Shown here in pieces: positions 6,369-62,031 of a DNA stretch of 64,000 nt. The stretch spans positions 15,615 to 79,614 of the IMG/VR virus record IMGVR_UViG_3300038560_000007. One strand, given 5' to 3'. The position numbers and the translations under genes are program-made. Under the pieces are notes generated by a model, which was not told the DNA's origin, ran no database searches, and saw only the letters and a list, made by a program, of their open reading frames with translations. Source of the stretch: a virus. Every line of letters begins with the position of its first letter. Position 1 is the first letter of the stretch.

Positions 6369-6627
6369 GGACTGGAAGGTTCCGAGTGATCACCGAGGCG
6401 TAACCTTCGAGGAGTGGGTGGAAGGACTACCGCTTCAACTCAACCGCGAAGAGATTACGCTTGCTGAGTCAGCCTGGAGGGCTTCGATTACACATCACAC
6501 GGCAACGCTTCGTCGCATCGGCTGGATTGATCAGAAGGGTCGCGTCTGGCTAGAGGTTCCTTCCGCGAAGGACTTCGATGGCGGAAGCCTCACGCCTTTG
6601 CTAGTTGACGTTCGAGGCGATGACTAA
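6286..6627 (+). CDS. Hypothetical protein
   Basis: GGAGGAGG RBS before GTG; TAATG coupling. Confidence 0.55.
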   Translation: MASKDQKGQNPFNPNWNSTFLRLNQNCEDWKVPSDHRGVTFEEWVEGLPLQLNREEITLAESAWRASITHHTATLRRIGWIDQKGRVWLEVPSAKDFDGGSLTPLLVDVRGDD

Positions 6628-6833
6628 TGGCGAGACTACGGCTAGGCCGAAAGCTTAGCCAGACTGAAGGTTTGCAGACGCTTTATCTTCAGAATGGGGA
6701 AGAGCCTTCCGACGATGACCCTTGTGTAGGTGTAGTCATATCACCTGCTCTGGCAAGGTACATCGTGCGAGGGACCAATGATGATGGAGCGTTCCGGAGG
6801 CTGACAGAACTATGGAGGCTGACAGAACTATGA
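6627..6833 (+). CDS. Hypothetical protein
   Basis: Coupled to neighbours on both sides. Confidence 0.55.
   Translation: MARLRLGRKLSQTEGLQTLYLQNGEEPSDDDPCVGVVISPALARYIVRGTNDDGAFRRLTELWRLTEL
6796..6832 (+). repeat. Tandem 18-bp duplication of an RBS-plus-start unit
   Basis: GGAGGCTGACAGAACTAT x2 followed by G, creating ATGs at 6812 and 6830. Confidence 0.9.
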
Positions 6834-10226: not shown

Positions 10227-10371
10227 GCAAGTCCCGTTCTGCACGCACAAGGACGACGACGGCGTCGAGGACTGCGGGGTTCGAATGATCAGGTTCCTGA
10301 ACCCGTTCCGCTTCGTCTGCCCACGCGGGCATGGCAATACGCATCGGCTCCTGCGCATTGTGGTTCGGTGA
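10210..10371 (+). CDS. Small putative Zn-binding protein
   Basis: C-x10-C ... CPRGH; stop overlaps the queE start. Confidence 0.45.
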   Translation: METTTKQVPFCTHKDDDGVEDCGVRMIRFLNPFRFVCPRGHGNTHRLLRIVVR

Positions 10372-11144
10372 TGTCAGACCTCTTGAACGTTAACGAAATC
10401 TTTGGCCCGACTATCCAGGGGGAAGGTCCGGCGACTGGAAGGCTGGCTGCCTTCGTTCGCCTGGCCAATTGCAACCTGACTTGTAAGTGGTGCGACACGC
10501 CATACACATGGGCCTTTACGTCCAACAAGGCAGGGCATCATCAGTCTGGGAAGCAGTACGACAAGGCTGAAGAGGTTCACTCTATGAACCCGCTCGAGAT
10601 CATGGAGCGCCTCCACGAGATCGTTCCGCCTCGGCAGAACCGATTTGGGTCGATCGGCAGGATCGGGACGCTCGTTGTCATCTCTGGAGGCGAGCCTCTT
10701 ATTCAGGCAGTCCCACTCCTGGCGCTAGCTAGGCTAATGTGGGCGCAAGGCTACACCGTCCACATTGAGACGGCAGGCACACGTTATCCAGGACAGCTAG
10801 CTAGCTTCGTCGACACGTTCGTCGTTTCTCCGAAGTTGGAGAACTCAGGCAACCTGATCGACAAGAGATTCAGGCCAGCCATCCTCCGAGAGTTTGCGAC
10901 GACGCTATCGAACCAGACCTGGTTCAAGTTCGTCGTAGAGGGAGTAGCCGACCTCAAAGAGGTCGACTACATCGTGAATGAATGCAACATCCGACGCGAC
11001 CGAGTAATGATCATGCCCGAAGGTACCAAGACGGACAAGATCATCGCGAAGGCCCAAGAGATCGTCGTGGACGTCCTGGGAAGGGGCTACGGTCTCACTC
11101 TACGAAACCATGTCTTTATCTGGGATGACGTGAGGGCACACTAG
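10371..11144 (+). CDS. queE: 7-carboxy-7-deazaguanine synthase (radical SAM)
   Basis: EIFGPTIQGEG, FVRLANCNLTCKWCDT, ISGGEPL, IETAG, VSPKL, MPEG, RNHV. Confidence 0.95.
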   Translation: MSDLLNVNEIFGPTIQGEGPATGRLAAFVRLANCNLTCKWCDTPYTWAFTSNKAGHHQSGKQYDKAEEVHSMNPLEIMERLHEIVPPRQNRFGSIGRIGTLVVISGGEPLIQAVPLLALARLMWAQGYTVHIETAGTRYPGQLASFVDTFVVSPKLENSGNLIDKRFRPAILREFATTLSNQTWFKFVVEGVADLKEVDYIVNECNIRRDRVMIMPEGTKTDKIIAKAQEIVVDVLGRGYGLTLRNHVFIWDDVRAH

Positions 11145-11161
11145 GCGGACTAGGAGATACC

Positions 11162-11479
11162 ATGCCCTTGTTTGGAAGGAGAGACCCGAAGGCTATCAAC
11201 GCCTCGGTCAACGATGGCGAGGTAATCGTACTCGTCACCACCTACAGTGAGTGGCACTGGCTGCCACGCGAGGGCAAGGTCCAACGGTGGATCCTTGACA
11301 CCGAACTAGGAACCTCCATCAAGATGAAGGGCGAGGATGCAATCCTGTTCTCGACCCACAACAACTTGGAGGGGGCTACTCAGATAGCAGCGAACCGAGA
11401 GTATCGCCTGCTTCTGGCAGCACTCAACCTCCGAGCTGCACAGCCGCACCACGTGGGGGGTGATGCACCTAAGGATTGA
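11162..11479 (+). CDS. Hypothetical protein
   Basis: AGGAG RBS. Confidence 0.6.
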   Translation: MPLFGRRDPKAINASVNDGEVIVLVTTYSEWHWLPREGKVQRWILDTELGTSIKMKGEDAILFSTHNNLEGATQIAANREYRLLLAALNLRAAQPHHVGGDAPKD

Positions 11480-11524
11480 CGCACGGCTGTACAGAACACG
11501 ACTACAAGTTTCCGAAAGGAAGAC

Positions 11525-12427
11525 ATGTCTAGGTTCATCAAGTTCGCAGCCACGGTGGCTGCGATCGGCGGTCTCACGGGCTATGGCCTGATGGCGGCTA
11601 GCTCGGCAGGCGCAGCTACGGCTCATGCGTCCCTGGCCAAGCCTCTCGTAGTGGAAGGCGCTCCGGCCGAGACGACCTACCTGGCCGGCTACGCCACGAT
11701 CAACGAAGGCGACAGCCACTTCTACGACTTCCGATCGAACATCAGCGTCCCGAGCCAGATGGCCTCCGGCGTTACGCCGGACTCTTTCGCAGCGGGTATC
11801 TCTCAGCAGGACCGAGAGAACGCGAGCGGCGAGACCGACTATACCACGGCGCTTGGCTGGGTCTGGGACGACACCTCGGGAGATGCGTGCGGAGCCAATA
11901 CCTACACGCTGGAATACGGCGATGGGGACAGCTACGCCTACGTTCCGCTGAACGGAAGCGATCTGCGGGTAGTCCTAGTGACCGACCCGGACACCGACCC
12001 GACTACCCAGGTGCCGATCTGCAACGCGAACCCGGTCGATACGTACCTGGAGCTGGAGTACGACGCCACCACGCATCACCTGCACTTCTATGAGGGCACC
12101 GCTTACAACAACAAGACTCTCATCGCAAGCTGCTACGTGCCAAGTGATGGACGCAGCTTCAACGTACTCGGCGTTGGTCTAGACACGGCTGTGGACGGTA
12201 CGAACGGTGCAGCGGCGCTGAACTCTGGCACCTTGGCATCCTTCGGCCGCGCTCGGTTCACCCTGAGCGATGGCAAGATCGGCAAGCTGCAGGCACTCAA
12301 CCTGGAGCAGTTCGACGGCACCGAGTTCGGTGGTGCTCCGTCAGTCTCCAACCCGGCTACGCTGACCACGAGTGGTCTCGTCACCGGCGGCATCAGCGCG
12401 ACTGGCTTCCACGTCGTCGCGCCGTAG
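11525..12427 (+). CDS. Secreted protein, possibly G1 glutamic-peptidase-like beta fold
   Basis: Sec signal peptide with AxA; YLAGYA...FRSNISVPS resembles the G1 N-terminus (NWAGYA...WTVP). Confidence 0.6.
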   Translation: MSRFIKFAATVAAIGGLTGYGLMAASSAGAATAHASLAKPLVVEGAPAETTYLAGYATINEGDSHFYDFRSNISVPSQMASGVTPDSFAAGISQQDRENASGETDYTTALGWVWDDTSGDACGANTYTLEYGDGDSYAYVPLNGSDLRVVLVTDPDTDPTTQVPICNANPVDTYLELEYDATTHHLHFYEGTAYNNKTLIASCYVPSDGRSFNVLGVGLDTAVDGTNGAAALNSGTLASFGRARFTLSDGKIGKLQALNLEQFDGTEFGGAPSVSNPATLTTSGLVTGGISATGFHVVAP

Positions 12428-12428
12428 T

Positions 12429-12490
12429 AGCTAGCGTTCCAGGGTCAAGCTGGAAGCGAGAGCCTCCAGCTTGGCTCTGGGATACTAGTT
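12429..12490 (+). terminator. Long hairpin after the secreted-protein gene (terminator or processing site)
   Basis: TTCCAGGGTCAAGCTGGA / TCCAGCTTGGCTCTGGGA with G-U pairs and a GAGA loop. Confidence 0.6.
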
Positions 12491-12582
12491 AACGGAAGTA
12501 CGACATCGCCCACCGAGGGGTGAAGACTGGTAGCCATCAACACAGAAACTAACGAGTACATATTCGAGAGGCAGACCCACTG

Positions 12583-12750
12583 ATGTCGCTGGTGACAGTC
12601 GAGATGGTCGAGGAGAGATCTTGCCCTGACTGCTGGAGTGGAACAAACGTGCCCTGCGTTCCGATTAGGAACGTAGCAGGCTCTAAGGAACTGTACGACC
12701 TCGACCGAATGTATCACGCAAGCAGGAGGTATGGGACAGGACAACGATGA
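12583..12750 (+). CDS. 55-aa zinc-finger protein (not in the ORF track)
   Basis: GAGAGG RBS; CPDC-x7-C ... YHASR, the same pattern as 1116..1478; ATGA overlap. Confidence 0.55.
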   Translation: MSLVTVEMVEERSCPDCWSGTNVPCVPIRNVAGSKELYDLDRMYHASRRYGTGQR

Positions 12751-12998
12751 GCATTGAGCAGGTAACAGGGCTGATGTTCATTGGTGTCGTGGTTCTCGCC
12801 GTTCTCTGGTACAGAATCCTCCTCAAGAAGTCGAACGTTCAACGGCTTGATAGGATCCCATACAACTACGCCATCTGCATATGTGGACGGCACTACATTC
12901 GAGGCTGTAACCACAGCCGCGGAGTAGTCTCCACGTGGGTAGATGTACGTACCGGATTGCATTATCACCCAGACGGAAGCCCGGTGGAGCATCGATAA
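12747..12998 (+). CDS. Small membrane protein with a Cys motif
   Basis: N-terminal TM; CICGRHY. Confidence 0.55.
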   Translation: MSIEQVTGLMFIGVVVLAVLWYRILLKKSNVQRLDRIPYNYAICICGRHYIRGCNHSRGVVSTWVDVRTGLHYHPDGSPVEHR

Positions 12999-13115
12999 TG
13001 TGGATAATACGAGGCCTAATAATTGACGCAGGTCTATTCAGCCTGATAGTAGCGGCCGGCACATATGGATGTGCCGGCCTTAAACATCTTCGAGAGAAGA
13101 GAAAGGAACGGAGAG

Positions 13116-13943
13116 ATGCTAAGGGAAAGGATCTTCAAGCTGCTGACTGCGATGTTGGCTATCATAGCCATGATCTTCACAGCGGGACAATCTAGCCCTG
13201 CACATGCGCAGACTCAAACGACCAAGCAACTAGTTCCGAGGGAACTTATGGTTCAAGGTAACGACTTGGCAAACCTGAACTCGCTGGGCACTGGTTATAC
13301 ATCAGACTTCACGTACATTACCTGCGGTGGTAACTCTGGCGTTTGCTCCCCCGGTGACATCAACTCCTATACTAGCGAGGCCGTGTTCGCCGCTGCCATA
13401 GCTGACGGCACGCAGCCGCCCGGGTCGACGGCGCTGCTGGACCTGGAACCGTGGGACCTGACCCCCGCCAGCGAGTCGGCGCACATCGAGTACTACGACA
13501 AGCTCGCAACTGAGGCAGCTATCGCGAATGGGATCAACCTAATCTTGAGCCCGGTCGATTACGTAGACGGCCTACCAGAGGCAGCCGAGGCTGAGGCAGC
13601 CTATGCAGGCGCGGGCACGATCATCGAGATTCAGTCACAGGGTCACGACGCTACTCCAACCAAGCTCTACGACTACGTCGACCCGATTGTCAAGGCTATT
13701 CGAGCTCAGAACAAGACCGTGCCAATCATGATTGGACTAGCTACGGACGCAGGAGGATGGAACGTCATCTCTGGCACTACGCTATACGATGACTACCTGA
13801 CAACCTACGGCCTAGCATCCGCATTCTGGCTAAACGCCGCTACATGGACAGACGTGAACGCTAAGCCCTGTGCAGCAACAGGCTGTCCAGTAGATGGCGA
13901 TGCCTTCCTCGACCTCTGGGTGACAGGAGCTACGTCGTCATGA
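13116..13943 (+). CDS. Secreted protein, possibly a glycoside-hydrolase-like TIM barrel
   Basis: Signal peptide ending PAHA; ALLDLEPW, IEIQSQ, IMIGLAT, AFWLN strand motifs. Confidence 0.6.
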   Translation: MLRERIFKLLTAMLAIIAMIFTAGQSSPAHAQTQTTKQLVPRELMVQGNDLANLNSLGTGYTSDFTYITCGGNSGVCSPGDINSYTSEAVFAAAIADGTQPPGSTALLDLEPWDLTPASESAHIEYYDKLATEAAIANGINLILSPVDYVDGLPEAAEAEAAYAGAGTIIEIQSQGHDATPTKLYDYVDPIVKAIRAQNKTVPIMIGLATDAGGWNVISGTTLYDDYLTTYGLASAFWLNAATWTDVNAKPCAATGCPVDGDAFLDLWVTGATSS

Positions 13944-13992
13944 GCAAGACCCAAACCTCAGCTCACTATCATATCTGGGCGGTGATGATACT

Positions 13993-14229
13993 ATGTCTGC
14001 TAGTCCTGATCGCAGTCCTGATAGCAATGAACTAGCAGAACACGAACTGCTTATCGTTCACTCACACAGAGAGGATGATGGCCGTTACATCGTAGAAGGA
14101 CGATGCCTCTGCGGTGAAGGGCCTTTCACCGGGATGTCTACAGTGAGCTTCCGCATCGCGCGCTCGCACGTTAGCCAGTCGCCCTACAAGAAGCACTTGG
14201 AAGCGCAGGTCAAGAAAGCTTCCTCGTAA
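13993..14229 (+). CDS. Hypothetical protein
   Basis: CLCG ... H motifs; ends just before a promoter. Confidence 0.5.
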   Translation: MSASPDRSPDSNELAEHELLIVHSHREDDGRYIVEGRCLCGEGPFTGMSTVSFRIARSHVSQSPYKKHLEAQVKKASS

Positions 14230-14233
14230 GGGT

Positions 14234-14267
14234 CCTAGCTTGACCTCGTGGAGTACATATATAATAG
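14234..14267 (+). promoter_or_regulatory. Class I phage promoter
   Basis: CCTAG-N19-TATATAATAG. Confidence 0.85.
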
Positions 14268-14296
14268 ATGTATAACAATGAGGAGGGCACCCGGTT

Positions 14297-15472
14297 TTGA
14301 TTGATCCTACCCAAATCCATGAAGTGCACGGAAGCGTGCTCAAGTCGTTTCAGGGCTGCCGCCTTCAGTACAAATGGAACTTCATCGACGGGTACACTCC
14401 GCCGACCGTCGCTGCTCCATTGGAGTTTGGCTCGGCATTCCACCGTGGGATGGAAGTCCTCTATAACCCAGACACCTGGGACCTCCCGCTATTGGAACTC
14501 TACCGTCTGGCTAAGGAAGAGTTCACTAACGTTTGCATGCACCAGTTGGAAGCCTTCCTCAATAGAGCCGCGCTGTATCAGCTAGACCACGAAGCTGAAG
14601 TTGACTACCTCAAGCGCATCGAGCTCGGATGCGGCATGCTCCGCAAGGTCGCTCGGACTATGGATCGTAAGAGCTTCAAGCCCGTTCTAACCGAGAAGGA
14701 GATCTTTGTCCCGATCAAGTATCCTACCACTGATCAACAGTTGCATTGTCGGTGCAACGATTGCTGGGATAAGTCCAGTAAAGCTGACCCTGATCTCATC
14801 CCTACCGAGTGGTCCGGTCTTCCAGTCTACTACGGACTACGTGTCGATGCCGTACTCGTGGACGAAGACGGAGGCTACTGGCTCGTCGACTGGAAAACCG
14901 CCAGTCAGCTCTTGAAGGATCAACTCATCCTCGAGCTCGACGGCCAGATCATCAACTACCTCTGGGCGCTCAAGCTCGCCTCAGGTCTAGACCTCCGAGG
15001 CTTCAAGTACGTCCAGATCCTAAAGGACTTCCCCCACAAGCCGAGGGAGCTAGTAAACGTCCGTCTCGGACGTAAGTTCAGCGTGGCCAAGAACGCTCGA
15101 ACAGATGCTGCCACGTTCTCTACCTATGTCAAGAAGCACGACAGCGATGCTTTTAAGGCTGGACTCTACGCCGAGCATATCGAATACCTTCGCAACTTCG
15201 GCCCCATGTTCATTAACTGGATGACAGTCTACAAGACCGACCAACAGCTCGAAGTCGTCGGTACAGACTTGGCCTATGCAGTTAAGGACTTGCTAGACTC
15301 TCCGGACATCTACGCTACTGGTGGTCGAATGGTTTGCCAGCGTTGCGTCTTCCAGGAACCTTGCCTCGAACGGCAATCAGGAGGTGATTTCCAAGACATC
15401 CTAGACTCGCAGTACGAGAAGCTCCCACCGTACTTCATAATCGAACGAGAGCGCAGGAAGGCGGACGCGTGA
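14297..15472 (+). CDS. Cas4/RecB-like PD-(D/E)xK exonuclease
   Basis: SFQGCR, FGSAFH, E...RVDAVL...LVDWKT, QIINY, C-terminal CxxC-x5-C. Confidence 0.9.
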   Translation: MIDPTQIHEVHGSVLKSFQGCRLQYKWNFIDGYTPPTVAAPLEFGSAFHRGMEVLYNPDTWDLPLLELYRLAKEEFTNVCMHQLEAFLNRAALYQLDHEAEVDYLKRIELGCGMLRKVARTMDRKSFKPVLTEKEIFVPIKYPTTDQQLHCRCNDCWDKSSKADPDLIPTEWSGLPVYYGLRVDAVLVDEDGGYWLVDWKTASQLLKDQLILELDGQIINYLWALKLASGLDLRGFKYVQILKDFPHKPRELVNVRLGRKFSVAKNARTDAATFSTYVKKHDSDAFKAGLYAEHIEYLRNFGPMFINWMTVYKTDQQLEVVGTDLAYAVKDLLDSPDIYATGGRMVCQRCVFQEPCLERQSGGDFQDILDSQYEKLPPYFIIERERRKADA

Positions 15473-15644
15473 ACGTTGCAATGTTCAGAGAGCAAGTCCA
15501 GAAGGCTCACGAAGAATTCGACGAGACGGTTGACGCGGCACGAGCTAGCTACCGGCAAAGGATGCGAGAGATCCACTCCGAATTTCTCGGAGAGCCTTAC
15601 CCTAATGACATAGCTGTCGATGAGCACCCCAAGAGGGCTCACTG

Positions 15645-16451
15645 ATGACTCTGGTTATTCCGGAAGCATTCGGAGGCATCCCACTCAAGCGCGTCGGAGA
15701 TCTCCAGCCCTACATCAAGGGTCTTCTCTATGGCAAGCCTGGAGCAGGCAAGACGTTCTTCTCTGCGCAAGCGTCTAAGGTCCCGGCCATGAGTCCTTGC
15801 CTAGTCATGACGCCAGATGCTACCGAAGCTGACACATTGCGCGAAGCGGCCCCAGATGCAGTCCATGCCAAGATCAACAACTTCGAAGAGTTCTGGGACA
15901 TCTACAGAGCCTGCGCAGTCGGTCTAGATGATCCTGACAAGATCCCGTTCAAGACGATCATCATGGATACAGGCACCGAAGCCCAGAAGATGAACATGCG
16001 TGACATCATGGCTAAGCTCATGATCACTGGTCGCCCTGGCGGTGGCGAGGTCAACATGGACGTGCCCAGCGTTCGCGAGTGGGGCCAGTCCAGCAGTGAG
16101 ATGCGTCGCATCCTCAGGTCCTTCCGAGACTTGCCTGTCAACTTCATAGTCAACTGCCACGAGCAGGAGAGTCGCGACAACCGCGGAGTGAACTGGTACA
16201 AGCCAGACCTCCCCGGCAAGCTCACCAACCAGGTTGCCGGCATGTTCTCCCTCGTGGGTTATGTCTACATCAATGCCAAGTATGAGAAGCAGGATGGTCG
16301 CAACGTCGTCGTAGACGAGAAGCGTTGCCTACTGACTGGCTTCGTAGACGGGTTTGTCACGAAGTCTAGAGCCGGCACTCTACCTAGGGTCATGGAGGAC
16401 CCACAAATGGCTACGCTGTACGAGCTCATAACCGGCAAGCCTGCCGCGTAG
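15645..16451 (+). CDS. AAA ATPase (AAA_24 / Sak4-like recombinase)
   Basis: YGKPGAGKT, TIIMDT, VNCHE, PDLPGK; flanked by a nuclease and SSB. Confidence 0.85.
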   Translation: MTLVIPEAFGGIPLKRVGDLQPYIKGLLYGKPGAGKTFFSAQASKVPAMSPCLVMTPDATEADTLREAAPDAVHAKINNFEEFWDIYRACAVGLDDPDKIPFKTIIMDTGTEAQKMNMRDIMAKLMITGRPGGGEVNMDVPSVREWGQSSSEMRRILRSFRDLPVNFIVNCHEQESRDNRGVNWYKPDLPGKLTNQVAGMFSLVGYVYINAKYEKQDGRNVVVDEKRCLLTGFVDGFVTKSRAGTLPRVMEDPQMATLYELITGKPAA

Positions 16452-16491
16452 CAAGACATCTCGTAAACGTACTCGAAACGGAGAAACGTAA

Positions 16492-17043
16492 ATGGGTTTC
16501 AAGGTCGATGTTAGCGAGCGGGAAGCGGCTGCTGGCGACAGGTCATCACTCCCGATCGGCAAGTTCCACATGGCGATCACGAACGTCGAGACGGGCACTC
16601 CAGCACAGGGAGACAACGTCGGCAGGCCGATGCTCATCTTCGAGTTCACTGTTCAGGACTCGGACCTTACCTCAGTTCAGCTCCCCGACGCGAGCGGTAG
16701 GCTCCAGCCGCCAAAGCAGACGAACGACTTCGTCAACCGGAAGGACTTCGTCAACGCGATGTGCTGGGAGGGTGCCCTGTACACCATCGTCAACATCCTC
16801 AAGGCGATGGGTAAGTACCAGGACTGCCTCGACAACCAGGGCAAGCTGGACATCCCGTCGGATCCAGAGTTCTACCTCGGCGAGCAGATGATCGTTCGTC
16901 GCGGCATCAACAAGAAGTCCCAGCAGGCGAACCCTGACAACCCGGACTACTGGGTCCAGGCTCAGGGCTTCTCGCCCGTCAAGGGAGCGGCGGCAGTGAG
17001 TGCTGGGGCGTCTAGCTCCGGCGAAGGGTCACTGCTTCCGTAG
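16492..17043 (+). CDS. Single-stranded DNA-binding protein (DUF669-like)
   Basis: LPIGKFHMAITNVE...PMLIFEFTV OB-like pattern; LLP C-terminus; synteny. Confidence 0.7.
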   Translation: MGFKVDVSEREAAAGDRSSLPIGKFHMAITNVETGTPAQGDNVGRPMLIFEFTVQDSDLTSVQLPDASGRLQPPKQTNDFVNRKDFVNAMCWEGALYTIVNILKAMGKYQDCLDNQGKLDIPSDPEFYLGEQMIVRRGINKKSQQANPDNPDYWVQAQGFSPVKGAAAVSAGASSSGEGSLLP

Positions 17044-17094
17044 CGAGGTCGGCGGCCAGATGATTTTGGATGCCCTCCTTGCATCTGGCCGCCT

Positions 17095-17165
17095 CGGGAG
17101 GTAGCTTAATGGCAGAGCAGGCAGAGGCGCCACCATGGATCCGGGTTCGAGTCCCGGCCTCCCAC
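17095..17165 (+). tRNA. tRNA-like element with intact acceptor, D and T arms but no pairable anticodon arm
   Basis: GGGAGG/CCTCCC acceptor, GCTT-AATGGCA-GAGC D arm, CCGGG-TTCGAGT-CCCGG T arm; GGCAG/ACCAT does not pair and there is no U33. Confidence 0.7.
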
Positions 17166-17291
17166 GCGTATACGATTTATGACTGCTATCTCGGCTGGAT
17201 AATTCAGTCGACGTACAATCGAAACCGAACACCGCCGTATAGGCCTGCAGATCCTATTCAGTGGCTATGGCTAACTAGGTGAAGGGACTAC

Positions 17292-17834
17292 ATGTACCGC
17301 ATATCAAAGAAGTTCGAGTTCAGTGCAGATCACGCACTCAAAGGACTTCCTCCGGAGCACCAGTGCTCTAGGTTCCATGGACATAACTACGTAGTTGACG
17401 TAGTGCTCGAGTCGGCCGTTCTAAATGAGGCCGACTTCGTTCGAGACTACGGTGAACTCAGTCCAATCAAGGATTGGATCAACAAGACGCTCGATCATCG
17501 CTGGCTTGGCTGGGGAATGATCGCTCGCCTAGAAGGTACGGAGCCATGTACGGAGCCATGTACGGAGTGCGAGAACGGCCCCTGGCACGTTAGCCAGATT
17601 ACTAAGCCTGTTCTTGATTTCAACCCGACGGCCGAGAACATGGCGAAGTTCATCTACACCTTCGCCTGTACGATTGCACCCGAAGTCTCCATGGTCGGAG
17701 TGAGTGAGACACCGAAGACGTGGGCCTGGTACACCCCAAACAACCTCACGCTCGACGTCTTAGAGCACGCGGTAGCTACGTTGCCTCAACCTCTCAGGAC
17801 CAGCTTCCGCGCCGCGCTTAGGGACAATACATGA
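17292..17834 (+). CDS. queD: 6-carboxy-5,6,7,8-tetrahydropterin synthase
   Basis: FEFSADH, CSRFHGHNY, DYGEL, LDHR, NPTAENMA, VSETPKTWA. Confidence 0.95.
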   Translation: MYRISKKFEFSADHALKGLPPEHQCSRFHGHNYVVDVVLESAVLNEADFVRDYGELSPIKDWINKTLDHRWLGWGMIARLEGTEPCTEPCTECENGPWHVSQITKPVLDFNPTAENMAKFIYTFACTIAPEVSMVGVSETPKTWAWYTPNNLTLDVLEHAVATLPQPLRTSFRAALRDNT

Positions 17835-18427
17835 CATCACCCTCCTGGTCTACATCGATGCCGCTTCTAGCAGATGCTTCTCCTGAAGAACTCATCCACG
17901 AGTTCCTGATGAAGACCTGCCCTGACATCTACAATCCTGACTCGGAGCATTTCAGGGACACTCCGAGACGCTTCACCAAGATGATTACGGAGCTCACTTC
18001 CTCGGAGGACTTCAAGTTCACTACCTTCGAGGCTTCGGCCAGTGAGATGGTAATCGTTCGCGCGATCAACTTCGTCAGTATGTGTGCACATCACATCGCG
18101 CCGTTCGTCGGGACCTGCCATGTCGGTTATATCCCTGCAGAGAAGGTCGCTGGCATTTCGAAGTTCTCCAGGCATGTCAGACAGTACGCACACACTCTGA
18201 CTAACCAGGAGGCGCTGACGACGAACATCGCAGACTCGCTCGATGATATCCTGGAGCCTCGCGGTGTCGCCGTCATCATGCAGGCAAGCCACTCGTGTAT
18301 GAGTACACGCGGGGCGCTGGCTCATGGATCCGATACGGTGACTAGCGCTATGCGAGGCGTGTTCATCGATCACACCAAGACGGCCAAGTCCGAGTTCATG
18401 GCTATCGTAGGTCCGAAGCTCCAATGA
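17831..18427 (+). CDS. folE: GTP cyclohydrolase I
   Basis: DTPRR, SMCAHHIAPF, GISKF, QEALT, HSCMSTRG, TSAMRG. Confidence 0.95.
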   Translation: MTSPSWSTSMPLLADASPEELIHEFLMKTCPDIYNPDSEHFRDTPRRFTKMITELTSSEDFKFTTFEASASEMVIVRAINFVSMCAHHIAPFVGTCHVGYIPAEKVAGISKFSRHVRQYAHTLTNQEALTTNIADSLDDILEPRGVAVIMQASHSCMSTRGALAHGSDTVTSAMRGVFIDHTKTAKSEFMAIVGPKLQ

Positions 18428-20785: not shown

Positions 20786-23464
20786 TTGACTACTGAGGCC
20801 CTAGAAGTACATCTAGATCCCAAACGCCTCGCTGCTACCGCTCTAGGCGCAAACTGCGCTGGCTGTCCAATGAACGACAACCGAGAGTACGGCTGCGTTA
20901 GCTCAACAGGTCCGCAGAAGGCAGACATTGGCGTCGTAGGGCAGAACCCTGGCCAGCAGGAGATCAGGACTGGCAAGCCTTTCATGGGACCTTCGGGTCG
21001 ACTACTCGACCAAGTACTGAAGCACTACAATCTAGATCGTTCAAAGATGTTCATAACGAACGCCTGCCTTTGCGTACATCGGAACGAGAACATCACACCG
21101 CCAGCTGCTGCAGTCGCCGCATGCCGACCTAGACTCATTAACGAATTGCGAGGCCGAGATGTCAAGCAAGTCATCAACCTCGGAAAGGTCCCAGCTCAAG
21201 GACTCTTCGGAGTCAGAGATTCGATCACCTCACTTCGGGTGGGCTCATTCCGAGAGGTGTACGACCTGCCAGGCGTACAAGTCTATTCTACGTTCCACCC
21301 TGCAGCTTGTCTTCGTAGTTCCGGATTCTTCCCTAGCCTTGTTGCTGATTTTGGTAAGCTTGTCAATCCACCTCCACCTTGGCGGGAACCTCAGTTCGTG
21401 GTATGGGAAGATCCTCATACCGCTATACGAGGCATCCGAGAGATGGAGCGCAGACATATTGATGTCATCACTCTCGACCTCGAGTGGGCAACACCTTTCG
21501 ACAAGGACGTCTCTTTCGATCACCCTTACCGATACAAGCTCCTCTGTATCGGCATGGCATACGCAACAGATAAGGCAGTCATCATTGGCAAGACAGCAAG
21601 CCAGTCGATCGCGGTACTAGAGGTACTCCGGCAGTACCTGTCGACCTGCAAAAAGATCGTCTGCCAAAACGGGAAGTCGGACAAGCAGGGCGCGTACGCC
21701 AAGGGCTTCAACTTTGACTTCACCGATGACACCATGCTGTCGAACTACGTTATGGACGAAAGGCCAAGCATCCATGGACTCAAGGTTCAGCTGGAGGAGA
21801 AACTCGGATACCCTCGTTACGGGGATGAGATCAAGCAGTACCTCGGAAAAGGAAAGGCCAGGTCCTTTGCTAACATCCCCCTGGATATCCTGTATCGTTA
21901 CAACGCGTTCGACACGTGTGGAACTTTCGCTCTCGAGGAGCACAACGGAAAGCTACTGGCTAGCGACGACTGGGCCGAACCGATACGGCCTCGAGCTGAC
22001 GGTGAACGCTGGGGCCTTGTTCGTCTTCACAGCTTCCATGTCGAGACGGCCAACAACCTCGCATACGTTGAGCTCAACGGTTTTCCCGTTGACCTAGAAT
22101 GCAACGCCAAGCTGACTGAGAAGTACGACACGATCCTCGCCGGGCTCGAGCAGAACATGTTCGACGCGCTAGCAGGCGTTCGGGAGGATCCGAAGTTCAA
22201 TCCTAGATCCCCTCAACAGTTGAAGAAGATCTTTGCCGAGCTAGGTGTTCCGCTCCCTAAGGTTCGTCGACCTAACGGAACGATGTCGGAGACGACAGAC
22301 GCAGCGACGCTGAACGACCTGTATGACAAGTACAGATCGATGAAGCAGGTCACACTACAGGCACACATCCTCGACTCGGAAGATAACGCTCTCGGTCCCG
22401 AGGTGGCTGAAGTCGAAACGCGATCAGTCGAAGTACGATTTCTCGAAGCGCTACTGGCTTATCGCAAGGCGGCTAAGACGAACGGCACGTACGTTCGAGG
22501 ACTGAAAAAGCATGTCTGGAAAGGTCGCGTCTTCCCGACCGTAATGATCCACTCCACCGTCTCTGGGCGTACGAGCCAGAAGAAGCCATCGCTTCAGGTC
22601 ATCCCTCACGCCGACGAGATCAAGCGACAGTTCGTCGTGTCCGATTATCACCAGTGGAAGTATGGCTGGAAGCCTCATGAGGACTATCACCTGCTAGCCG
22701 AGTTCGACTTCAAGCAGATCGAACTGCGAGTCCTCACGTGGCTCGCGGAAGAGGATTACTTCCGAGACATCTTCGAAGATCCTAGTCGGGACTTGTTTAC
22801 GGAGCTAGCGGACGTCGTCCACCCTGAGCGTTCATCTAGGACGACAATGCATAAGAAGGACAGGCGTAACATCGTGAAGGCGTTTGTCTACGGACTCGCT
22901 TACGGTCGCGAGGCTGGATCGATCGCCGACGAGTTCAATATTCCTCTCCGGGAAGCCCAACGCATGCAGCGAGAGTTCTTCCAGGTCATTCCGAAGGTTG
23001 CAGCCTTCCGAGAGCAGGTCAAGTGGGCAGCTACGTCTCAGGACGACTTGGTAACTCCGTTCGGCAGGCGCAGACGATTCATGCTTGTTACCAGTGAGAA
23101 CAAGAAGGACATTCAGAATGAAGCACTGTCATTCTATCCGCAGTCGATCGCGAGTGACATTTGCATCCAGGCCTTTGATTGGTTGCGGCCTAAGCTCAAA
23201 GGCGTTGCGTGGTGTCGCAATCTTGTTCACGACGCCTTGTTCTGGGAATTTCGCGAAGCCGATCTCGAGTACGTTGCCAACACAGTCATCACCACTATGC
23301 GTGAATCAGCCCGACGGGTCATGGGAGACTACGTACGAATCGATGTAGATGCCGAAGTGGGGCGAACCTGGGGAGACCTAATTAGCCTGGAGGAGTGGAG
23401 AGAAGGAAAGCGACCTTACCCGACATCGATAGTAAAGTGGGAACCAAGTGAACGAGCCAGCTAG
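20786..23464 (+). CDS. polA: Family A DNA polymerase with an N-terminal family-4 UDG-like domain and a 3'-5' exonuclease
   Basis: UDG: CAGC, VGQNPG, PFMGPSG, TNACLC, FHPAA; Exo: LDLE, QNGKSD, YNAFD; Pol: DFKQIELR, RNIVKAFVYGLAYG, LVHD. Confidence 0.95.
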   Translation: MTTEALEVHLDPKRLAATALGANCAGCPMNDNREYGCVSSTGPQKADIGVVGQNPGQQEIRTGKPFMGPSGRLLDQVLKHYNLDRSKMFITNACLCVHRNENITPPAAAVAACRPRLINELRGRDVKQVINLGKVPAQGLFGVRDSITSLRVGSFREVYDLPGVQVYSTFHPAACLRSSGFFPSLVADFGKLVNPPPPWREPQFVVWEDPHTAIRGIREMERRHIDVITLDLEWATPFDKDVSFDHPYRYKLLCIGMAYATDKAVIIGKTASQSIAVLEVLRQYLSTCKKIVCQNGKSDKQGAYAKGFNFDFTDDTMLSNYVMDERPSIHGLKVQLEEKLGYPRYGDEIKQYLGKGKARSFANIPLDILYRYNAFDTCGTFALEEHNGKLLASDDWAEPIRPRADGERWGLVRLHSFHVETANNLAYVELNGFPVDLECNAKLTEKYDTILAGLEQNMFDALAGVREDPKFNPRSPQQLKKIFAELGVPLPKVRRPNGTMSETTDAATLNDLYDKYRSMKQVTLQAHILDSEDNALGPEVAEVETRSVEVRFLEALLAYRKAAKTNGTYVRGLKKHVWKGRVFPTVMIHSTVSGRTSQKKPSLQVIPHADEIKRQFVVSDYHQWKYGWKPHEDYHLLAEFDFKQIELRVLTWLAEEDYFRDIFEDPSRDLFTELADVVHPERSSRTTMHKKDRRNIVKAFVYGLAYGREAGSIADEFNIPLREAQRMQREFFQVIPKVAAFREQVKWAATSQDDLVTPFGRRRRFMLVTSENKKDIQNEALSFYPQSIASDICIQAFDWLRPKLKGVAWCRNLVHDALFWEFREADLEYVANTVITTMRESARRVMGDYVRIDVDAEVGRTWGDLISLEEWREGKRPYPTSIVKWEPSERAS

Positions 23465-55377: not shown

Positions 55378-55644
55378 ATGGCTGAGAGAACAGGACTCGA
55401 GGCACCTAGGAGGCGAACGTTCTACCCCTGGGATGACTGGACTGATGGAACTACGTGGAAGGCCTACGAAGGAAAGGACTTCACTACGACTCCACAGAAC
55501 TTCCAAACCGTGCTTCATCTGAAGGCGAGATCTATGCCTGAGATGGCCCGAGTAATCACGGGGTCACCCGAAAAGGGTATAGTCGAATTCAGGTTCATCA
55601 AGAAGGAAGACGATGCCTCTGAGAGGGAGACCTCCGAAGTATGA
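55378..55644 (+). CDS. Small putative DNA-binding protein (YPWD family)
   Basis: RRRTFYPWDDWTDG..W...EGKDF; GAGGAG RBS. Confidence 0.7.
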   Translation: MAERTGLEAPRRRTFYPWDDWTDGTTWKAYEGKDFTTTPQNFQTVLHLKARSMPEMARVITGSPEKGIVEFRFIKKEDDASERETSEV

Positions 55645-55891
55645 ATGGGATCTCCTCCTCGAGTTCGACAGCACCCCTTGTGGGCTAACCACTCCGTGCA
55701 ACGGAGTCCACGCGGGAGTATGGGAGCTCAGACAGGGCGAGGACTTCCCTAGCACGATGAAGATTCAGAGCCTACAGGCGGCAATGCACGCTAAGGCGAA
55801 ATTCCTAGGCATACAGTGCCACACCAGAAAACAAAAGACGGGCCTGCAAGTCCAATTCTTCTGTACTGAGGAGAGCTGTGCCAGAGTATAA
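55613..55891 (+). CDS. Small putative DNA-binding protein (YPWD family)
   Basis: RGRPPKYEWD...WELRQGEDF. Confidence 0.7.
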   Translation: MPLRGRPPKYEWDLLLEFDSTPCGLTTPCNGVHAGVWELRQGEDFPSTMKIQSLQAAMHAKAKFLGIQCHTRKQKTGLQVQFFCTEESCARV

Positions 55892-56303
55892 GCCAGTGAG
55901 CAACGCAGAGTGGGACTGGCTCGAGGGTCGATTCGTCGCACTCGAGCGCATGCCAGGCATGCGAGAGATCTTCGACCGGTCCCTTCCGGGCTCACCGTAC
56001 ACTGCGGACGAGCGACGCGCATACAGACGAGAGATCTTCGAGGCCATACGCACTATGGTCTCACCACTCGAAGCGTTCCCTAACCCGTACTTCGAGCTAA
56101 CCTGGGTTCGCGCCGTAGCCGCGAATCCGAGCCTCCTGAACGACGTTACAGTCAACAGATCTCTCCTCTGGAACGCCTTCTTCAGGCCCGAGGAGCCGCC
56201 TGGCTTTCGAGAGCAGCAGATCGAACGGTGGAAGCACGTTGCCGGGGGTGAAACGGGCCTTCCGATCGTGACCGACACCGACCTCGAAGAAGCTGCAGAA
56301 TGA
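55878..56303 (+). CDS. Hypothetical protein
   Basis: GAGGAG RBS; ATGA overlap with the next gene. Confidence 0.6.
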   Translation: MPEYKPVSNAEWDWLEGRFVALERMPGMREIFDRSLPGSPYTADERRAYRREIFEAIRTMVSPLEAFPNPYFELTWVRAVAANPSLLNDVTVNRSLLWNAFFRPEEPPGFREQQIERWKHVAGGETGLPIVTDTDLEEAAE

Positions 56304-57577
56304 TGCAGCGCATCGAAGGCATGACAGACACACGTCCAGGCCCGAGACCCGGTGAGCACAAGACCAAGCCATCGCTCAAGCCCTTCGTAGCCGTAGACGT
56401 CAACCAGAACCCCTGGTCTATGCCAAGGGAATACCAAGGGACTATCCCAGTTACGTACGGCAACATCTTCATCCTCGCACAGGCCCTCACGCGAGGAATG
56501 AGTCCAGATACTAAATACATCGCCACCGAACAGCGAAGGCTCACACGCTTCCCAGACGGTAGAGCATTCAAGATAGAGCTCCGCATCAAGGAAGGCACAG
56601 CCTTCGGTGGCAAGATCTGGATTCGAGACAGCAAGGGTCGCTCGACTATCATTCAAGATGTCAAGGGCCTATTCCAGGTCAACTGGCCTGCTCTTAAGAG
56701 ACTCTACAACGCGAACGACCTCGCTCAGGTCATGGAGCATACGAGGTCCTCACTGGCAGAGGTCAACCTTAGAGCAGACCAACAGGACTGGTACCGTTGC
56801 TCCAGCATCACTGGTGAACTATGGCGTCGCCTACAGGTCAACCTAGGAGACGTCCCATGCGTAAGGGTGAATAGAGATGAACCAGGTAACCTACAAGGTT
56901 ACAACGTCTTTGGGCACACAGATCAACCCGTCTACTTTTACGACATCCACAGCGCTTACCTTTCAGTCATGGCCCAGTTTCCCGCCCTGGAGCCTTTCAC
57001 CGACTACCTCTGGTCCGCACGCCAAGAACTGGACCAATCTCAAGATCCTGCCGCTTTTGTCTTGAAGCTAGCGGCCGTAGTCATACCTGGGAAGTTTACC
57101 AGTGCGCTACCGGGTAACAAGTTCTACAGGCCCATCCTCGGCCAATACATCCGACAGTCGATCAACGACCGGCTTCGTGCAGCCATGAACCTGATCGATG
57201 GATACTACAACCGGTACCGATGGTGTGTAGATGGCTTCATAGCCAGTCAGGATATCAGTAGGCACCTCGACGTTGGCGACGGCCTTGGCCAGTGGAAGCC
57301 AGTCGACGTCCATTCCAGACTGACCATCGCCCGAACTAACGTCTGGTGGACAGACAAGGGCCACAAGGACAACGGCTATACCGTCAGGGAACAGCAAGTC
57401 CTAGACGATCCTACCGAGATCCACACATCACGCACGGTCTTCGACTGGTCTACACTGTCGGAGCGAACAGAACCTGTAACCTTGTATCAGAATCACTACG
57501 AAGAGCAGTGTCGAGCATGCCGAGACGGTGGAGGAATGCATCTCCATGATACTCTACCCCGAGGAATCGTACTATGA
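56300..57577 (+). CDS. Degenerate, compact family B DNA polymerase-like protein
   Basis: Motif A YDIHSAYLSVM, motif B LKLAAVVIPGKF, motif C RWCVDGF, then GDGLGQWK, in PolB order. Confidence 0.7.
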   Translation: MMQRIEGMTDTRPGPRPGEHKTKPSLKPFVAVDVNQNPWSMPREYQGTIPVTYGNIFILAQALTRGMSPDTKYIATEQRRLTRFPDGRAFKIELRIKEGTAFGGKIWIRDSKGRSTIIQDVKGLFQVNWPALKRLYNANDLAQVMEHTRSSLAEVNLRADQQDWYRCSSITGELWRRLQVNLGDVPCVRVNRDEPGNLQGYNVFGHTDQPVYFYDIHSAYLSVMAQFPALEPFTDYLWSARQELDQSQDPAAFVLKLAAVVIPGKFTSALPGNKFYRPILGQYIRQSINDRLRAAMNLIDGYYNRYRWCVDGFIASQDISRHLDVGDGLGQWKPVDVHSRLTIARTNVWWTDKGHKDNGYTVREQQVLDDPTEIHTSRTVFDWSTLSERTEPVTLYQNHYEEQCRACRDGGGMHLHDTLPRGIVL

Positions 57578-57780
57578 TCGCATTCGAAGGGCACATCACA
57601 TCGATCGAGTATGAAGACGACGGGATGATTCGAGCCATCATCGCGCACGACCCTCGAGGCATACCTTGTCGAATAGAGATCGACAGGCCTCCTGAACGGA
57701 TGATCACCCCGATATACGGCCAAACTTCTCTCATGCTAACCCATCAAACGATGCAACCGCCTATCAGAGTTCACCTATGA
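57574..57780 (+). CDS. Hypothetical protein
   Basis: ATGA overlaps on both sides. Confidence 0.55.
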   Translation: MIAFEGHITSIEYEDDGMIRAIIAHDPRGIPCRIEIDRPPERMITPIYGQTSLMLTHQTMQPPIRVHL

Positions 57781-58511
57781 TTGATTTCTACACCAACGAA
57801 ACAGTACACAACATCCCTCCTCAGGACTACCTAATCAATCTGATCCTGCCGGAGGGCGTTTCACTGCTATCCGCACACCCCAAGAAGGGCAAATCCATCC
57901 TAGCCCTAGACTGGGGGCTATCCCTTAGTGCAGGCCTCAACTGGATGGGGCACCAGTGTAGGCAAGTCCCGGTACTTTACGTCCTATCCGAGGCGCGTAG
58001 CACACTAACCAAGCGCGTCCCAGCATGGCAAACTCGACACGGGAAGCTATCCCACGAGCTAACCTACGCATGTGGTGCCACGAATCTGTGCGACTACAAC
58101 ACAGTCATAGCAGATCTATCACCACATATCCCAGATGAAGGCATGATTATCTGGGATACCATGTCGCGAAACATGGTCGGAGGCGACGAAAACGACTTCC
58201 GAACCATGGGAGCCGCCATCAGAACATGCGATCGGCTCTACGAAAACCATGGAACCAGCTCCCTCCTAGTGCACCACTCCACTAAGGAACATCAAATCAC
58301 AGCTGGAGGAGCAAAAGTAACCGGCAGCTGGTACCGAGGACACAGCAGTTTGCTCGGCGCAATCGACATGGGCATGACTATTGACGAGGACGAACTCGTC
58401 TGTAAGGCGGCCAGGCACGACGAAGAGTTCGACCCTATTGCCCTTCAGCGCACCGTTATCGGCGGTGGCGTCATACTAGACTGGCACTCGACAAAGGCAG
58501 GATACAGATGA
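57777..58511 (+). CDS. RepA/AAA_25-type (RecA-fold) helicase domain without a primase domain
   Basis: SAHPKKGKS, VLYVLSE, IIWDT, GDEN, LVHH..K, RGHSSL. Confidence 0.85.
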   Translation: MIDFYTNETVHNIPPQDYLINLILPEGVSLLSAHPKKGKSILALDWGLSLSAGLNWMGHQCRQVPVLYVLSEARSTLTKRVPAWQTRHGKLSHELTYACGATNLCDYNTVIADLSPHIPDEGMIIWDTMSRNMVGGDENDFRTMGAAIRTCDRLYENHGTSSLLVHHSTKEHQITAGGAKVTGSWYRGHSSLLGAIDMGMTIDEDELVCKAARHDEEFDPIALQRTVIGGGVILDWHSTKAGYR

Positions 58512-58696
58512 CCTACAAAAACACCGTTTCAGTACAAGTGCTAATATCCTCCCCACCAGAGGTCGACGAAACGCTACGCAGGGTCGATAAGGAACACATG
58601 TCGTTTCAGGTTATCGACGAGCGAGACAATCGAACTGCAGCCTGGATTGTGCCTGACGCGCTCATGCGGGCCCTAGCCCCTGGGATGTATCAATAA
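58508..58696 (+). CDS. Hypothetical protein
   Basis: ATGA overlap. Confidence 0.5.
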   Translation: MTYKNTVSVQVLISSPPEVDETLRRVDKEHMSFQVIDERDNRTAAWIVPDALMRALAPGMYQ

Positions 58697-61290: not shown

Positions 61291-62031
61291 ATGATCAAGT
61301 GTGATGGCGTAGCCATCGTCTCAGGAGGGCTCGACAGCGTCACGATGGCGCACTACCTCGTCAAGGCCTGGGAGAGAAAGCCTCATCTTATCTCGTTCGA
61401 CTACGGACAGCGCCACATCAAGGAGCTGGACTTCGCAGAGGAATGCGCCGATGAGCTCAGCCTGCCATGGAGCATGATCGACCTCTCCAGTCTGACGCAC
61501 CTGATCTCCAGTTCAGCGTTGACCTTCGGACAGGATGTCCCAGAAGGGCACTACGCCGAGGACAACATGGCGCTGACCGTCGTCCCTAACCGCAACATGA
61601 TGATGCTTTCGATCGCGGCTGCTATCGCCGTTAGCAACGAGTACACCTACATCGCGGCCGGGATGCACGCAGGCGACCACGCCCAGTACCCTGACTGTCG
61701 TCCACAGTTCATCGGCAGCATCCAACAGACACTCAAGTACGCCAACGAGGGCTTCACCGTCAGAGACAGCGGCCTAGTCATCGACACCCCCTGGATCGCC
61801 GCCACCAAGAGCGACATCGCTCGCCACGCGTTCGAGATGGAAGTTCCGCTCGAAAAAACCTGGTCCTGCTATAAGGGTAACGAGAAGCACTGCGGTCGAT
61901 GCGGCACCTGCGTCGAACGCCTCGAGGCCATCGCCTCAGTCACGATCGCTCCCGAAGGCTGGGACAAGACCGAGTATGAGGACTCAGAGTACTGGAAAAC
62001 CGCCGTCACAGAGTTCCAGGAGGCAAAGTAA
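61291..62031 (+). CDS. queC: 7-cyano-7-deazaguanine synthase
   Basis: SGGLDS, FDYGQRH, VPNRN, YPDCRP, TWSCY...HCGRCGTC. Confidence 0.95.
   Translation: MIKCDGVAIVSGGLDSVTMAHYLVKAWERKPHLISFDYGQRHIKELDFAEECADELSLPWSMIDLSSLTHLISSSALTFGQDVPEGHYAEDNMALTVVPNRNMMMLSIAAAIAVSNEYTYIAAGMHAGDHAQYPDCRPQFIGSIQQTLKYANEGFTVRDSGLVIDTPWIAATKSDIARHAFEMEVPLEKTWSCYKGNEKHCGRCGTCVERLEAIASVTIAPEGWDKTEYEDSEYWKTAVTEFQEAK

Follow-up and report, generated by a model that had tools for sequence, protein, structure and literature searches.

Introduction

To our knowledge, almost all known primases belong to the DnaG or AEP family, the exceptions being piPolB and CcPol-MP. These two show that a polymerase of ordinary fold can become a primase, and they have practical applications too, such as primer-free DNA amplification. 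The family B DNA polymerase (PolB) piPolB primes de novo with a single Asp in motif C and thereby provides a precedent for priming by a PolB (PMC5695915, PMC7544198). In SCCmec, CcPol-MP combines a truncated A-family polymerase with a small partner in a helicase operon, where it occupies the place in which related elements carry a primase, and its primase function has been shown experimentally (PMC10061031). Here we describe a three-gene locus of a virus from record IMGVR_UViG_3300038560_000007 of IMG/VR, which lies in a window of 64,000 nucleotides (bases 15615-79614 of the 79,614-bp record, which is ~90% complete and for which IMG/VR gives no end repeats). The locus encodes a compact PolB of 425 amino acids (aa), a 141-aa partner protein and a stand-alone AAA_25 (RepA-like) helicase of 244 aa. 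Our best reading, offered tentatively, is that the three may constitute a polymerase-derived priming module feeding the family A DNA polymerase (PolA) of the phage. The fold, the family and the idea of a priming PolB are already known. What appears in no source that we searched is a compact PolB clade lacking TPR1 and exonuclease activity, having an obligate novel partner and a helicase linkage, and residing in tailed PolA phages; likewise, a literature search of incomplete coverage yielded no paper describing such a reduced PolB or PolB-like primase, and PMC12926913 contained nothing relevant.

Predicted structure and motifs of the compact PolB

The gene of the compact PolB occupies window positions 56300..57577 on the + strand, and its assignment to the family-B DNA polymerases draws on fold, motifs, tree and the ratio of nonsynonymous to synonymous substitution rates (dN/dS). 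Sequence profiles alone are weak: Pfam DNA_pol_B_2 matches at E 0.13 and a PHROG DNA polymerase family at 4e-4, a PDB sequence search with the profile of the family gave a chance match only, and NCBIfam gave no match for the 10 proteins searched. It is the structure that settles the identity of the protein. Using 16 homologues as input, we obtained an AlphaFold model with pLDDT 80.9 and pTM 0.76, which in Foldseek searches against the PDB matches family-B polymerases only (Pol II 8e-6). VIA-align places phi29 DNA polymerase at the top (Z 13.6, root-mean-square deviation 4.8 over 329 residues), with residues 26-397 of the model lying against residues 5-575 of phi29. Against a library of viral structures, the model scores highest with the PolB of Rhodococcus phage Toil (E 1e-12, TMq 0.60) and with that of Streptomyces phage WheeHeim. 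As modelled, the protein is thus a PolB with a palm/fingers/thumb fold and an N-terminal domain of exonuclease fold.

The first-pass annotation, made from the sequence letters, had proposed a degenerate PolB with recognisable motifs A, B and C, very short spacing between them and no clear exonuclease acidic motifs. The palm-domain fold on which this proposal depended is borne out by the structural matches above, and the three motifs stand at the sites assigned to them and, the fold being that of family B, are not chance look-alikes. For the anatomy of the protein we aligned it with phi29, Bam35, PRD1, three actinobacterial tectiviral PolBs, four metagenomic full-length relatives and three piPolBs, while conservation was read from the close homologues (alignment A1) and from a wider set of 18 members with 23-58% identity (alignment A2). 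Across the latter, D120, G205, D215, K256, G264, D311, G330 and C407 are invariant. Motif A (YFYDIHSAYLSVM; YDIHSAY, kept as DxxSAY; 56933..56971, + strand) supplies the metal ligand D215, and Y220 takes the place of the steric-gate Tyr of phi29; both A219 and Y220 show no variation in A1 and are at least 90% conserved in alignment A7, the exceptions lying among divergent members. Motif B (KLAAVVIPGKF, K256..F266; 57065..57097, + strand) retains K256 and G264, but other residues stand in for the Asn, Ser and Tyr of KxxxNSxYG. Motif C (RWCVDGF; 57218..57238, + strand) contributes D311 as its lone Asp, the second of the pair being retained and the first gone (CVDG versus DTDS). Neither the canonical motif B, KxxxNSxYG, nor the canonical motif C, DTDS, is therefore present. 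The phi29 counterparts of D215, Y220, K256 and D311 are D249, Y254, K383 and D458, respectively.

An xDG motif C is common to the compact PolB, piPolB (TTDG; PMC5695915) and the actinobacterial tectiviral PolBs (TDG), and the first Asp of motif C is likewise absent from active piPolB (PMC5695915, PMC7544198). Since the actinobacterial tectiviral PolBs have the same feature, a single-Asp motif C is not diagnostic of piPolB. The PolBs of Toil (L017:1534-3324), Microbacterium phage MuffinTheCat (L018:1357-3408) and WheeHeim (L025:779-2824) all show this piPolB-like form, as TDG or TDA; the Toil protein additionally has a literal KTRG, and the Microbacterium phage genes are annotated 'DNA primase/polymerase'. 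In the primer-terminus region of the compact PolB (57335..57376, + strand), N347-x-W349 lies at the KxY position, and K356-D-N-G359 comes after it where Toil has 'KTRG' and phi29 'KCAG', although the model is of low confidence at residues 345-358 and the alignment near KxY/KTRG is uncertain. The Lys and Tyr of KxY are gone, and the LGxW motif is retained.

The N-terminal part of the protein, approximately residues 26-190 (56375..56869, + strand), is a degenerate remnant of the exonuclease domain, as indicated by an alignment that begins at phi29 residue 5, by the motif columns and by the invariant residues. Specifically, ExoI DxE has become D-V-N, with the Glu gone and the motif variable between members, nothing is left of ExoII YD, and the ExoIII segment has been deleted in full, while the invariant D120 has its counterpart in the Asp of phi29 'IYDS'. 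The earlier remark on missing exonuclease motifs thus holds for the catalytic residues and not for the domain itself, which persists as a degenerate, shortened N-terminal stretch of ~190 residues. The TPR1 block, which phi29, Bam35, PRD1, Toil and the metagenomic full-length relatives P0036-38 possess, is cleanly missing from every compact PolB, and the alignment shows no TPR2 insertion of the phi29 type in them. The short spacing between the motifs is confirmed; it arose as the TPR1 insertion and the ExoIII segment were cleanly deleted. At the C-terminus, H399-x4-C404-x2-C407-x8-H416 (57494..57547, + strand) is a putative zinc site that, judged from the residue pattern, may bind metal; it is invariant in A1, and in A2 C407 is invariant and H416 is at least 90% conserved. 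This motif looks inherited rather than new, because the PolBs of Toil and MuffinTheCat contain similar strings.

For close pairs of compact PolBs, dN/dS is 0.02-0.03, which indicates strong purifying selection. Together with the invariance of the catalytic residues, this argues for a predicted active enzyme without proofreading and not a decayed gene. Within the joint best explanation, which we hold as tentative, the 425-aa protein would polymerise DNA as an active, exonuclease-free member of the protein-primed/primer-independent branch of family B.

Family and origin of the compact PolB

When protein sets of 1.8 and 5.8 billion entries were searched exhaustively with HMMER, only ~40 compact-PolB members came to light, all of them metagenomic, with no Pfam domain on record and, where source names are tabled, nothing past 'hypothetical protein'. 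Neither the locus nor the protein matched any cultured phage by megablast and tblastn among 50,697 phage records, and scans for compact PolBs found nothing in genome contigs (A1, A4) or viral contigs (A3, A4, A6, P0019, P0021). The metagenomic full-length relative P0036 had no match among plasmids. Longer fused forms of the compact PolB (857+ aa) were not found by profile search, a result that carries little weight.

The 24 full-length compact PolBs analysed form a single clade (SH-aLRT 100) with long internal branches, in a tree that does not resolve how the outgroups relate to one another. Profile-profile comparison places the origin in the protein-primed/primer-independent branch, nearest to the PolBs of actinobacterial tectiviruses: hhalign gives 99.8% and E 1.3e-29 against the actinobacterial tectiviral-type PolBs, with residues 42-361 lying against Toil 44-492, compared with 68% and E 5e-5 against piPolB, confined to the motif B-C region, and 20% against phi29, Bam35 and PRD1. 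As a further part of the same tentative explanation, the compact PolB would descend from the PolB type of actinobacterial tectiviruses, minus the ExoIII segment, the exonuclease catalytic residues and TPR1.

A conserved partner and a linked helicase

Directly upstream of the compact PolB gene lies the gene of the 141-aa partner (55878..56303, + strand), whose stop overlaps the PolB start (ATGA). Its product is a conserved, all-alpha protein with an acidic C-terminal tail (AF2 model with pLDDT 84.5), and dN/dS of 0.05-0.07 indicates purifying selection. A homologue occupies the same position in 13/13 related loci, which are the basis of all neighbourhood counts given here; the divergent subfamilies P0019, P0021, P0024-31, P0033 and P0035 stand outside them. 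The fold has no match in the PDB (best Foldseek E 1.9; best wide VIA Z 3.6), the Atlas yielded no usable match either, and Pfam and PHROG returned no matches for the sequence. The only invariant hydroxyl residue of the partner is S39. A small gene adjoins the compact PolB gene just as terminal-protein genes adjoin those of protein-primed polymerases, but no terminal-protein similarity is detectable: a comparison with the terminal proteins of phi29, PRD1 and Bam35 and with tectiviral neighbour open reading frames (ORFs) gave hmmsearch E of at least 0.29 and hhalign probability of at most 0.3%, and the partner was rejected as a terminal-protein homologue.

Downstream of the compact PolB, the 244-aa helicase (57777..58511, + strand; Pfam AAA_25 1.5e-26) lacks a primase domain and covers only the C-terminal helicase part of the PHROG 906 'DNA polymerase/primase' profile (positions 509-717 of 872). 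ATGA start/stop overlaps at 56300, 57574, 57777 and 58508 translationally couple five consecutive genes, the last of which is a 62-aa ORF (window 58508-58696, + strand) joined to the helicase stop. The first-pass annotation had described a PolB connected by such overlaps, through one small ORF, to a primase-less AAA_25 helicase. The ORFs, the overlaps and the domain are as it described them, but the linking 68-aa ORF (57574..57780, + strand) is not conserved: it is absent from L003 and L005, in which the helicase begins 4 nt past the PolB stop, and other small ORFs take its place in L006-L008. The conserved third component, the upstream 141-aa protein, had been missed.

In every locus long enough to show it, an AAA_25 helicase lies within ~2 kb of the compact PolB. 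Its place is downstream, 0-4 small ORFs away, in subgroup 1 (49-66% identity; L003-L008), while in subgroup 2 (27-37% identity, 77-87-kb phages; L010-L016) a helicase of ~310 aa is encoded upstream of the partner gene. The linkage between helicase and PolB has therefore outlived rearrangement. Two adjacent small ORFs upstream of the module (window 55378-55644 and 55613-55891, + strand; 88 and 92 aa) match no family; by eye they seem to have a common W..W/E...G.DF....LH.KA pattern, and the second is conserved in L003, L005, L006 and L014.

Search for a primase in the record and its relatives

Six-frame Pfam searches of the whole 79.6-kb record, with positive controls, found no Prim-Pol, DnaG Zn-ribbon, Toprim_2/_3/_4, D5_N, DNA_primase_S or DUF3854 domain. 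Six related records, four of them near-complete (83-95%), contain no Prim-Pol, Toprim_2 or Toprim_3, and their single match to the DnaG Zn-ribbon is sub-threshold (E 0.01, 12 bits). These searches reach as far as the sensitivity of the hidden Markov models, and more divergent primases could escape them. The remaining unassigned ORFs of at least 200 aa, read by eye, look like antisense artefacts, secreted/membrane proteins or a DpdA-like protein. The earlier statement that no DnaG or AEP primase is recognisable in the window consequently extends to the whole record, and no canonical primase was found elsewhere in it.

Upstream of the window, at genome positions 6400-7572, lies the gene of a 390-aa protein with a domain match to DUF3631 (RepAM-type initiator) and a P-loop (GKT). 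Its structural relatives in the Atlas (718-905 aa) carry an N-terminal Toprim_3, Toprim_4 or DUF3854 domain, none of which is present here, and a similarly short DUF3631 protein occurs in 4/4 related near-complete records. It is a second replication ATPase without the usual primase domain.

By its terminase, the nearest cultured phage is Streptomyces phage KimJongPhill (Zukovirus), at 44% identity. The two phages have in common an SNF2 helicase, an exonuclease, a RecA-like protein and UDG-PolA, and KimJongPhill has no compact PolB. Its gp70 (L021:7988-10396) is an 802-aa protein annotated 'DNA primase/helicase' with an AAA_25 domain; the N-terminal ~400 residues have no Pfam match at E <=0.001, and AEP-like strings (FGDADEG, LPGTRNHK) can be seen in them by eye. 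The DUF3631 protein was also considered as an equivalent of the C-terminal half of gp70 and rejected, since the two are dissimilar and gp70 belongs to the AAA_25 type.

Genome setting

The compact-PolB locus is the first in a + strand block that is divergent from the terminase gene. Other replication genes on the + strand encode an SNF2 helicase, a Cas4-like nuclease, an AAA_24 ATPase and an 892-aa UDG-PolA fusion (20786..23464; Pfam DNA_pol_A 2.5e-53, UDG 2e-22), the presumed main replicase. PolA is present in 4/4 related near-complete genomes. The UDG-superfamily domain is N-terminal on PolA, and the same fusion occurs in KimJongPhill gp80. An Lsr2 protein and the RepAM-type DUF3631 protein point to an actinobacterial host. 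The phage encodes all of FolE, QueD, QueE and QueC, with a folE-queD-queE cluster at 10368-18427 and QueC (window 61291-62031, + strand; Pfam QueC 3.1e-56) at the far right genome end, distant from that cluster. Upstream of the window, long minus-strand ORFs at genome 5068-6150 (-) and 10388-11215 (-) translate into Ser-rich sequence of low complexity and are unlikely to be genes.

Discussion

We propose a model for this lineage of ~77-87-kb PolA-encoding soil actinophages in which the compact PolB, the 141-aa protein and the AAA_25 helicase act as a priming module. The helicase would unwind DNA or be loaded on it, the compact PolB, aided by its partner, would make short DNA primers de novo, and the UDG-PolA replicase would then extend these primers. 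In this model we infer both the physical association of the three proteins and the de novo priming. That a two-subunit PolB-derived primase with a RepA-like (AAA_25) helicase replaces the DnaG/AEP primase is a possibility that we advance with slightly greater reserve. The PolB fold, the invariant catalytic residues, the linkage to a primase-less helicase and the setting in a PolA phage without a recognisable primase all favour priming. To this extent the idea of the first-pass annotation, a repurposed PolB that may act as a primase, is supported in part. Its appeal to piPolB calls for correction: the nearest kin are the protein-primed PolBs of actinobacterial tectiviruses.

Several points weigh against a priming module. 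The activity of the compact PolB is a prediction from sequence and modelled structure. In profile comparison the protein stands much nearer to the tectiviral PolBs with protein priming (E 1e-29) than to piPolB (E 5e-5), and of the piPolB KH-X8-KTRG only K..G is kept, so that the Arg whose loss impairs piPolB (PMC5695915) is absent. The partner is all-alpha, unlike MP, an OB-fold protein that binds single-stranded DNA (SSB), and the helicases of the two subgroups are barely alike (tblastn E 0.003-0.01). Moreover, all loci with context belong to one phage lineage, with terminases 60-80% identical, so that the linkage is partly inherited and a mutual exclusivity with primases is beyond statistics. 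Some helicases of cultured actinophages are annotated simply as RepA-like or DNA helicase, primers could come from the host DnaG, from transcription or from recombination, and the record is only ~90% complete.

The strongest alternative, which we regard as unlikely though far from negligible, is a primer-dependent accessory polymerase on the helicase, engaged in translesion, gap-filling, strand-displacement or recombination-dependent synthesis and supplied with primers by host DnaG, transcripts or recombination intermediates. The absence of proofreading, together with that of the Asn and Tyr in motif B, would fit a low-fidelity polymerase, piPolB itself is capable of translesion synthesis (PMC5695915), the phage has recombination genes (Cas4-like nuclease, AAA_24), and its RepAM-type initiator (DUF3631) may recruit host functions. 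Such a role, however, leaves unexplained why three genes, those of the PolB, a helicase and a dedicated partner, are so strictly linked, and also why this lineage is without the primase domain annotated on the helicase of its closest cultured relative; the loss of TPR2-type elements further argues against processive strand displacement.

Protein-primed initiation, in which the 141-aa protein would be a reduced descendant of a terminal protein that gives the hydroxyl, the cassette of terminal protein and PolB having been captured from a tectivirus-like element, seems to us improbable. Protein-primed PolBs are the nearest relatives, the terminal-protein gene stands directly upstream of the PolB gene in phi29, PRD1 and Bam35, a small ORF adjoins PolB in Toil, MuffinTheCat and WheeHeim too, and S39 is the sole invariant hydroxyl residue of the partner. 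Nevertheless, TPR1, which is the terminal-protein-contacting subdomain in phi29 (PMC5695915), is deleted in the compact PolB, the partner resembles none of the tectiviral or phi29 terminal proteins or neighbour ORFs compared above, and the large terminase of the phage is of the type used in concatemer packaging.

Still less probable is a non-replicative nucleotidyltransferase that handles 7-deazaguanine nucleotides or makes untemplated or decoy DNA as counter-defence. The phage does encode FolE, QueD, QueE and QueC, and an altered motif B could reshape the nucleotide pocket. Known phage 7-deazaguanine DNA modification, however, is inserted post-replication by DpdA, which counts against this role, and a gene that stands beside a helicase at the head of the early operon is more in keeping with replication. 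The first-pass annotation's suggestion of modified nucleotides has gained no support, and nothing pointed to a resemblance to Streptomyces Tap, at which no test was aimed. Finally, a non-catalytic scaffold of a helicase complex, on the pattern of the inactivated PolB UL8 in the herpesviral helicase-primase complex, is the least probable of these alternatives, since the presence of UL8-type proteins among weak BFVD fold matches and the degeneration of the exonuclease domain and motif B are set against invariance of both metal Asp residues and the motif B Lys, conservation of the steric-gate Tyr above 90%, a deep clade and dN/dS of ~0.02; inactivated polymerases normally lose these residues.

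If the priming module is real, piPolB and CcPol-MP would be joined by a third, independently arisen primase built on a replicative-polymerase fold, and this one would be the first of its kind within the replisome of a tailed phage, with hand-off to PolA. It would then show the minimal changes by which a PolB starts chains (loss of TPR1, altered motif B and KxY), how a tectivirus-type replication gene came to be captured by a tailed phage, and how labour is split between two polymerase families in one replisome. The family also provides a PolB that is compact at 425 aa and by nature free of exonuclease activity, together with an obligate small partner and a helicase. Should the protein not be a primase, it would still represent an undescribed, deep-branching PolB clade with a conserved cofactor of no known fold.

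Comparison with known systems

Herpesviral UL8 is, like the compact PolB, derived from a PolB and tied to helicase machinery, but its catalytic residues are lost, whereas those of the compact PolB are kept invariant. The phi29 DNA polymerase provides the best match among solved structures, from end to end, at ~11-13% sequence identity; it differs in having an active exonuclease, TPR1 and TPR2, a terminal protein and a length of 572 aa. The primase/AAA_25 fusions of actinophages (KimJongPhill gp70, PHROG 906) fill the same functional slot, with an AAA_25 helicase and, in KimJongPhill, the same replication genes around it. In them, however, the annotated primase and the helicase are one polypeptide, while here the helicase stands alone beside a PolB-derived protein, and BLAST detects no similarity between the gp70 helicase and the stand-alone helicase.

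The CcPol-MP/PolA-SSB primases of SCCmec and other Bacillota elements have a like architecture, with a truncated polymerase, a small partner and a helicase in the place of the primase. Their catalytic domain is of the A family, and MP is an OB-fold SSB, in contrast to the all-alpha partner found here; the likeness, which is one of architecture only, would be convergent at most. Closer in family is piPolB, which like the compact PolB has a single Asp in motif C (TTDG versus V/TDG), no canonical KxY and a residence on mobile elements. The two piPolB representatives compared here for length are of ~1000 aa, and piPolB has an active exonuclease, TPR1 + TPR2 and KH-X8-KTRG, where the compact PolB has N-x-W and K-D-N-G.

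The best match in both profile and fold is to the actinobacterial tectiviral PolBs of Toil, WheeHeim and MuffinTheCat, together with the metagenomic P0036-P0039. These have in common with the compact PolB the xDG motif C, 'xDVxxFF', LGxW and the H..C..C..H C-terminus. They differ in their length of 550-740 aa and in ExoI DGEG, ExoII YD, the ExoIII segment, the TPR1-region insertion and a canonical KxxxNSxYG, all of which are lost in the compact PolBs. Whereas the tectiviral PolBs belong to tectiviruses of ~15-18 kb, the compact PolBs form a clade of their own in tailed phages that encode PolA.

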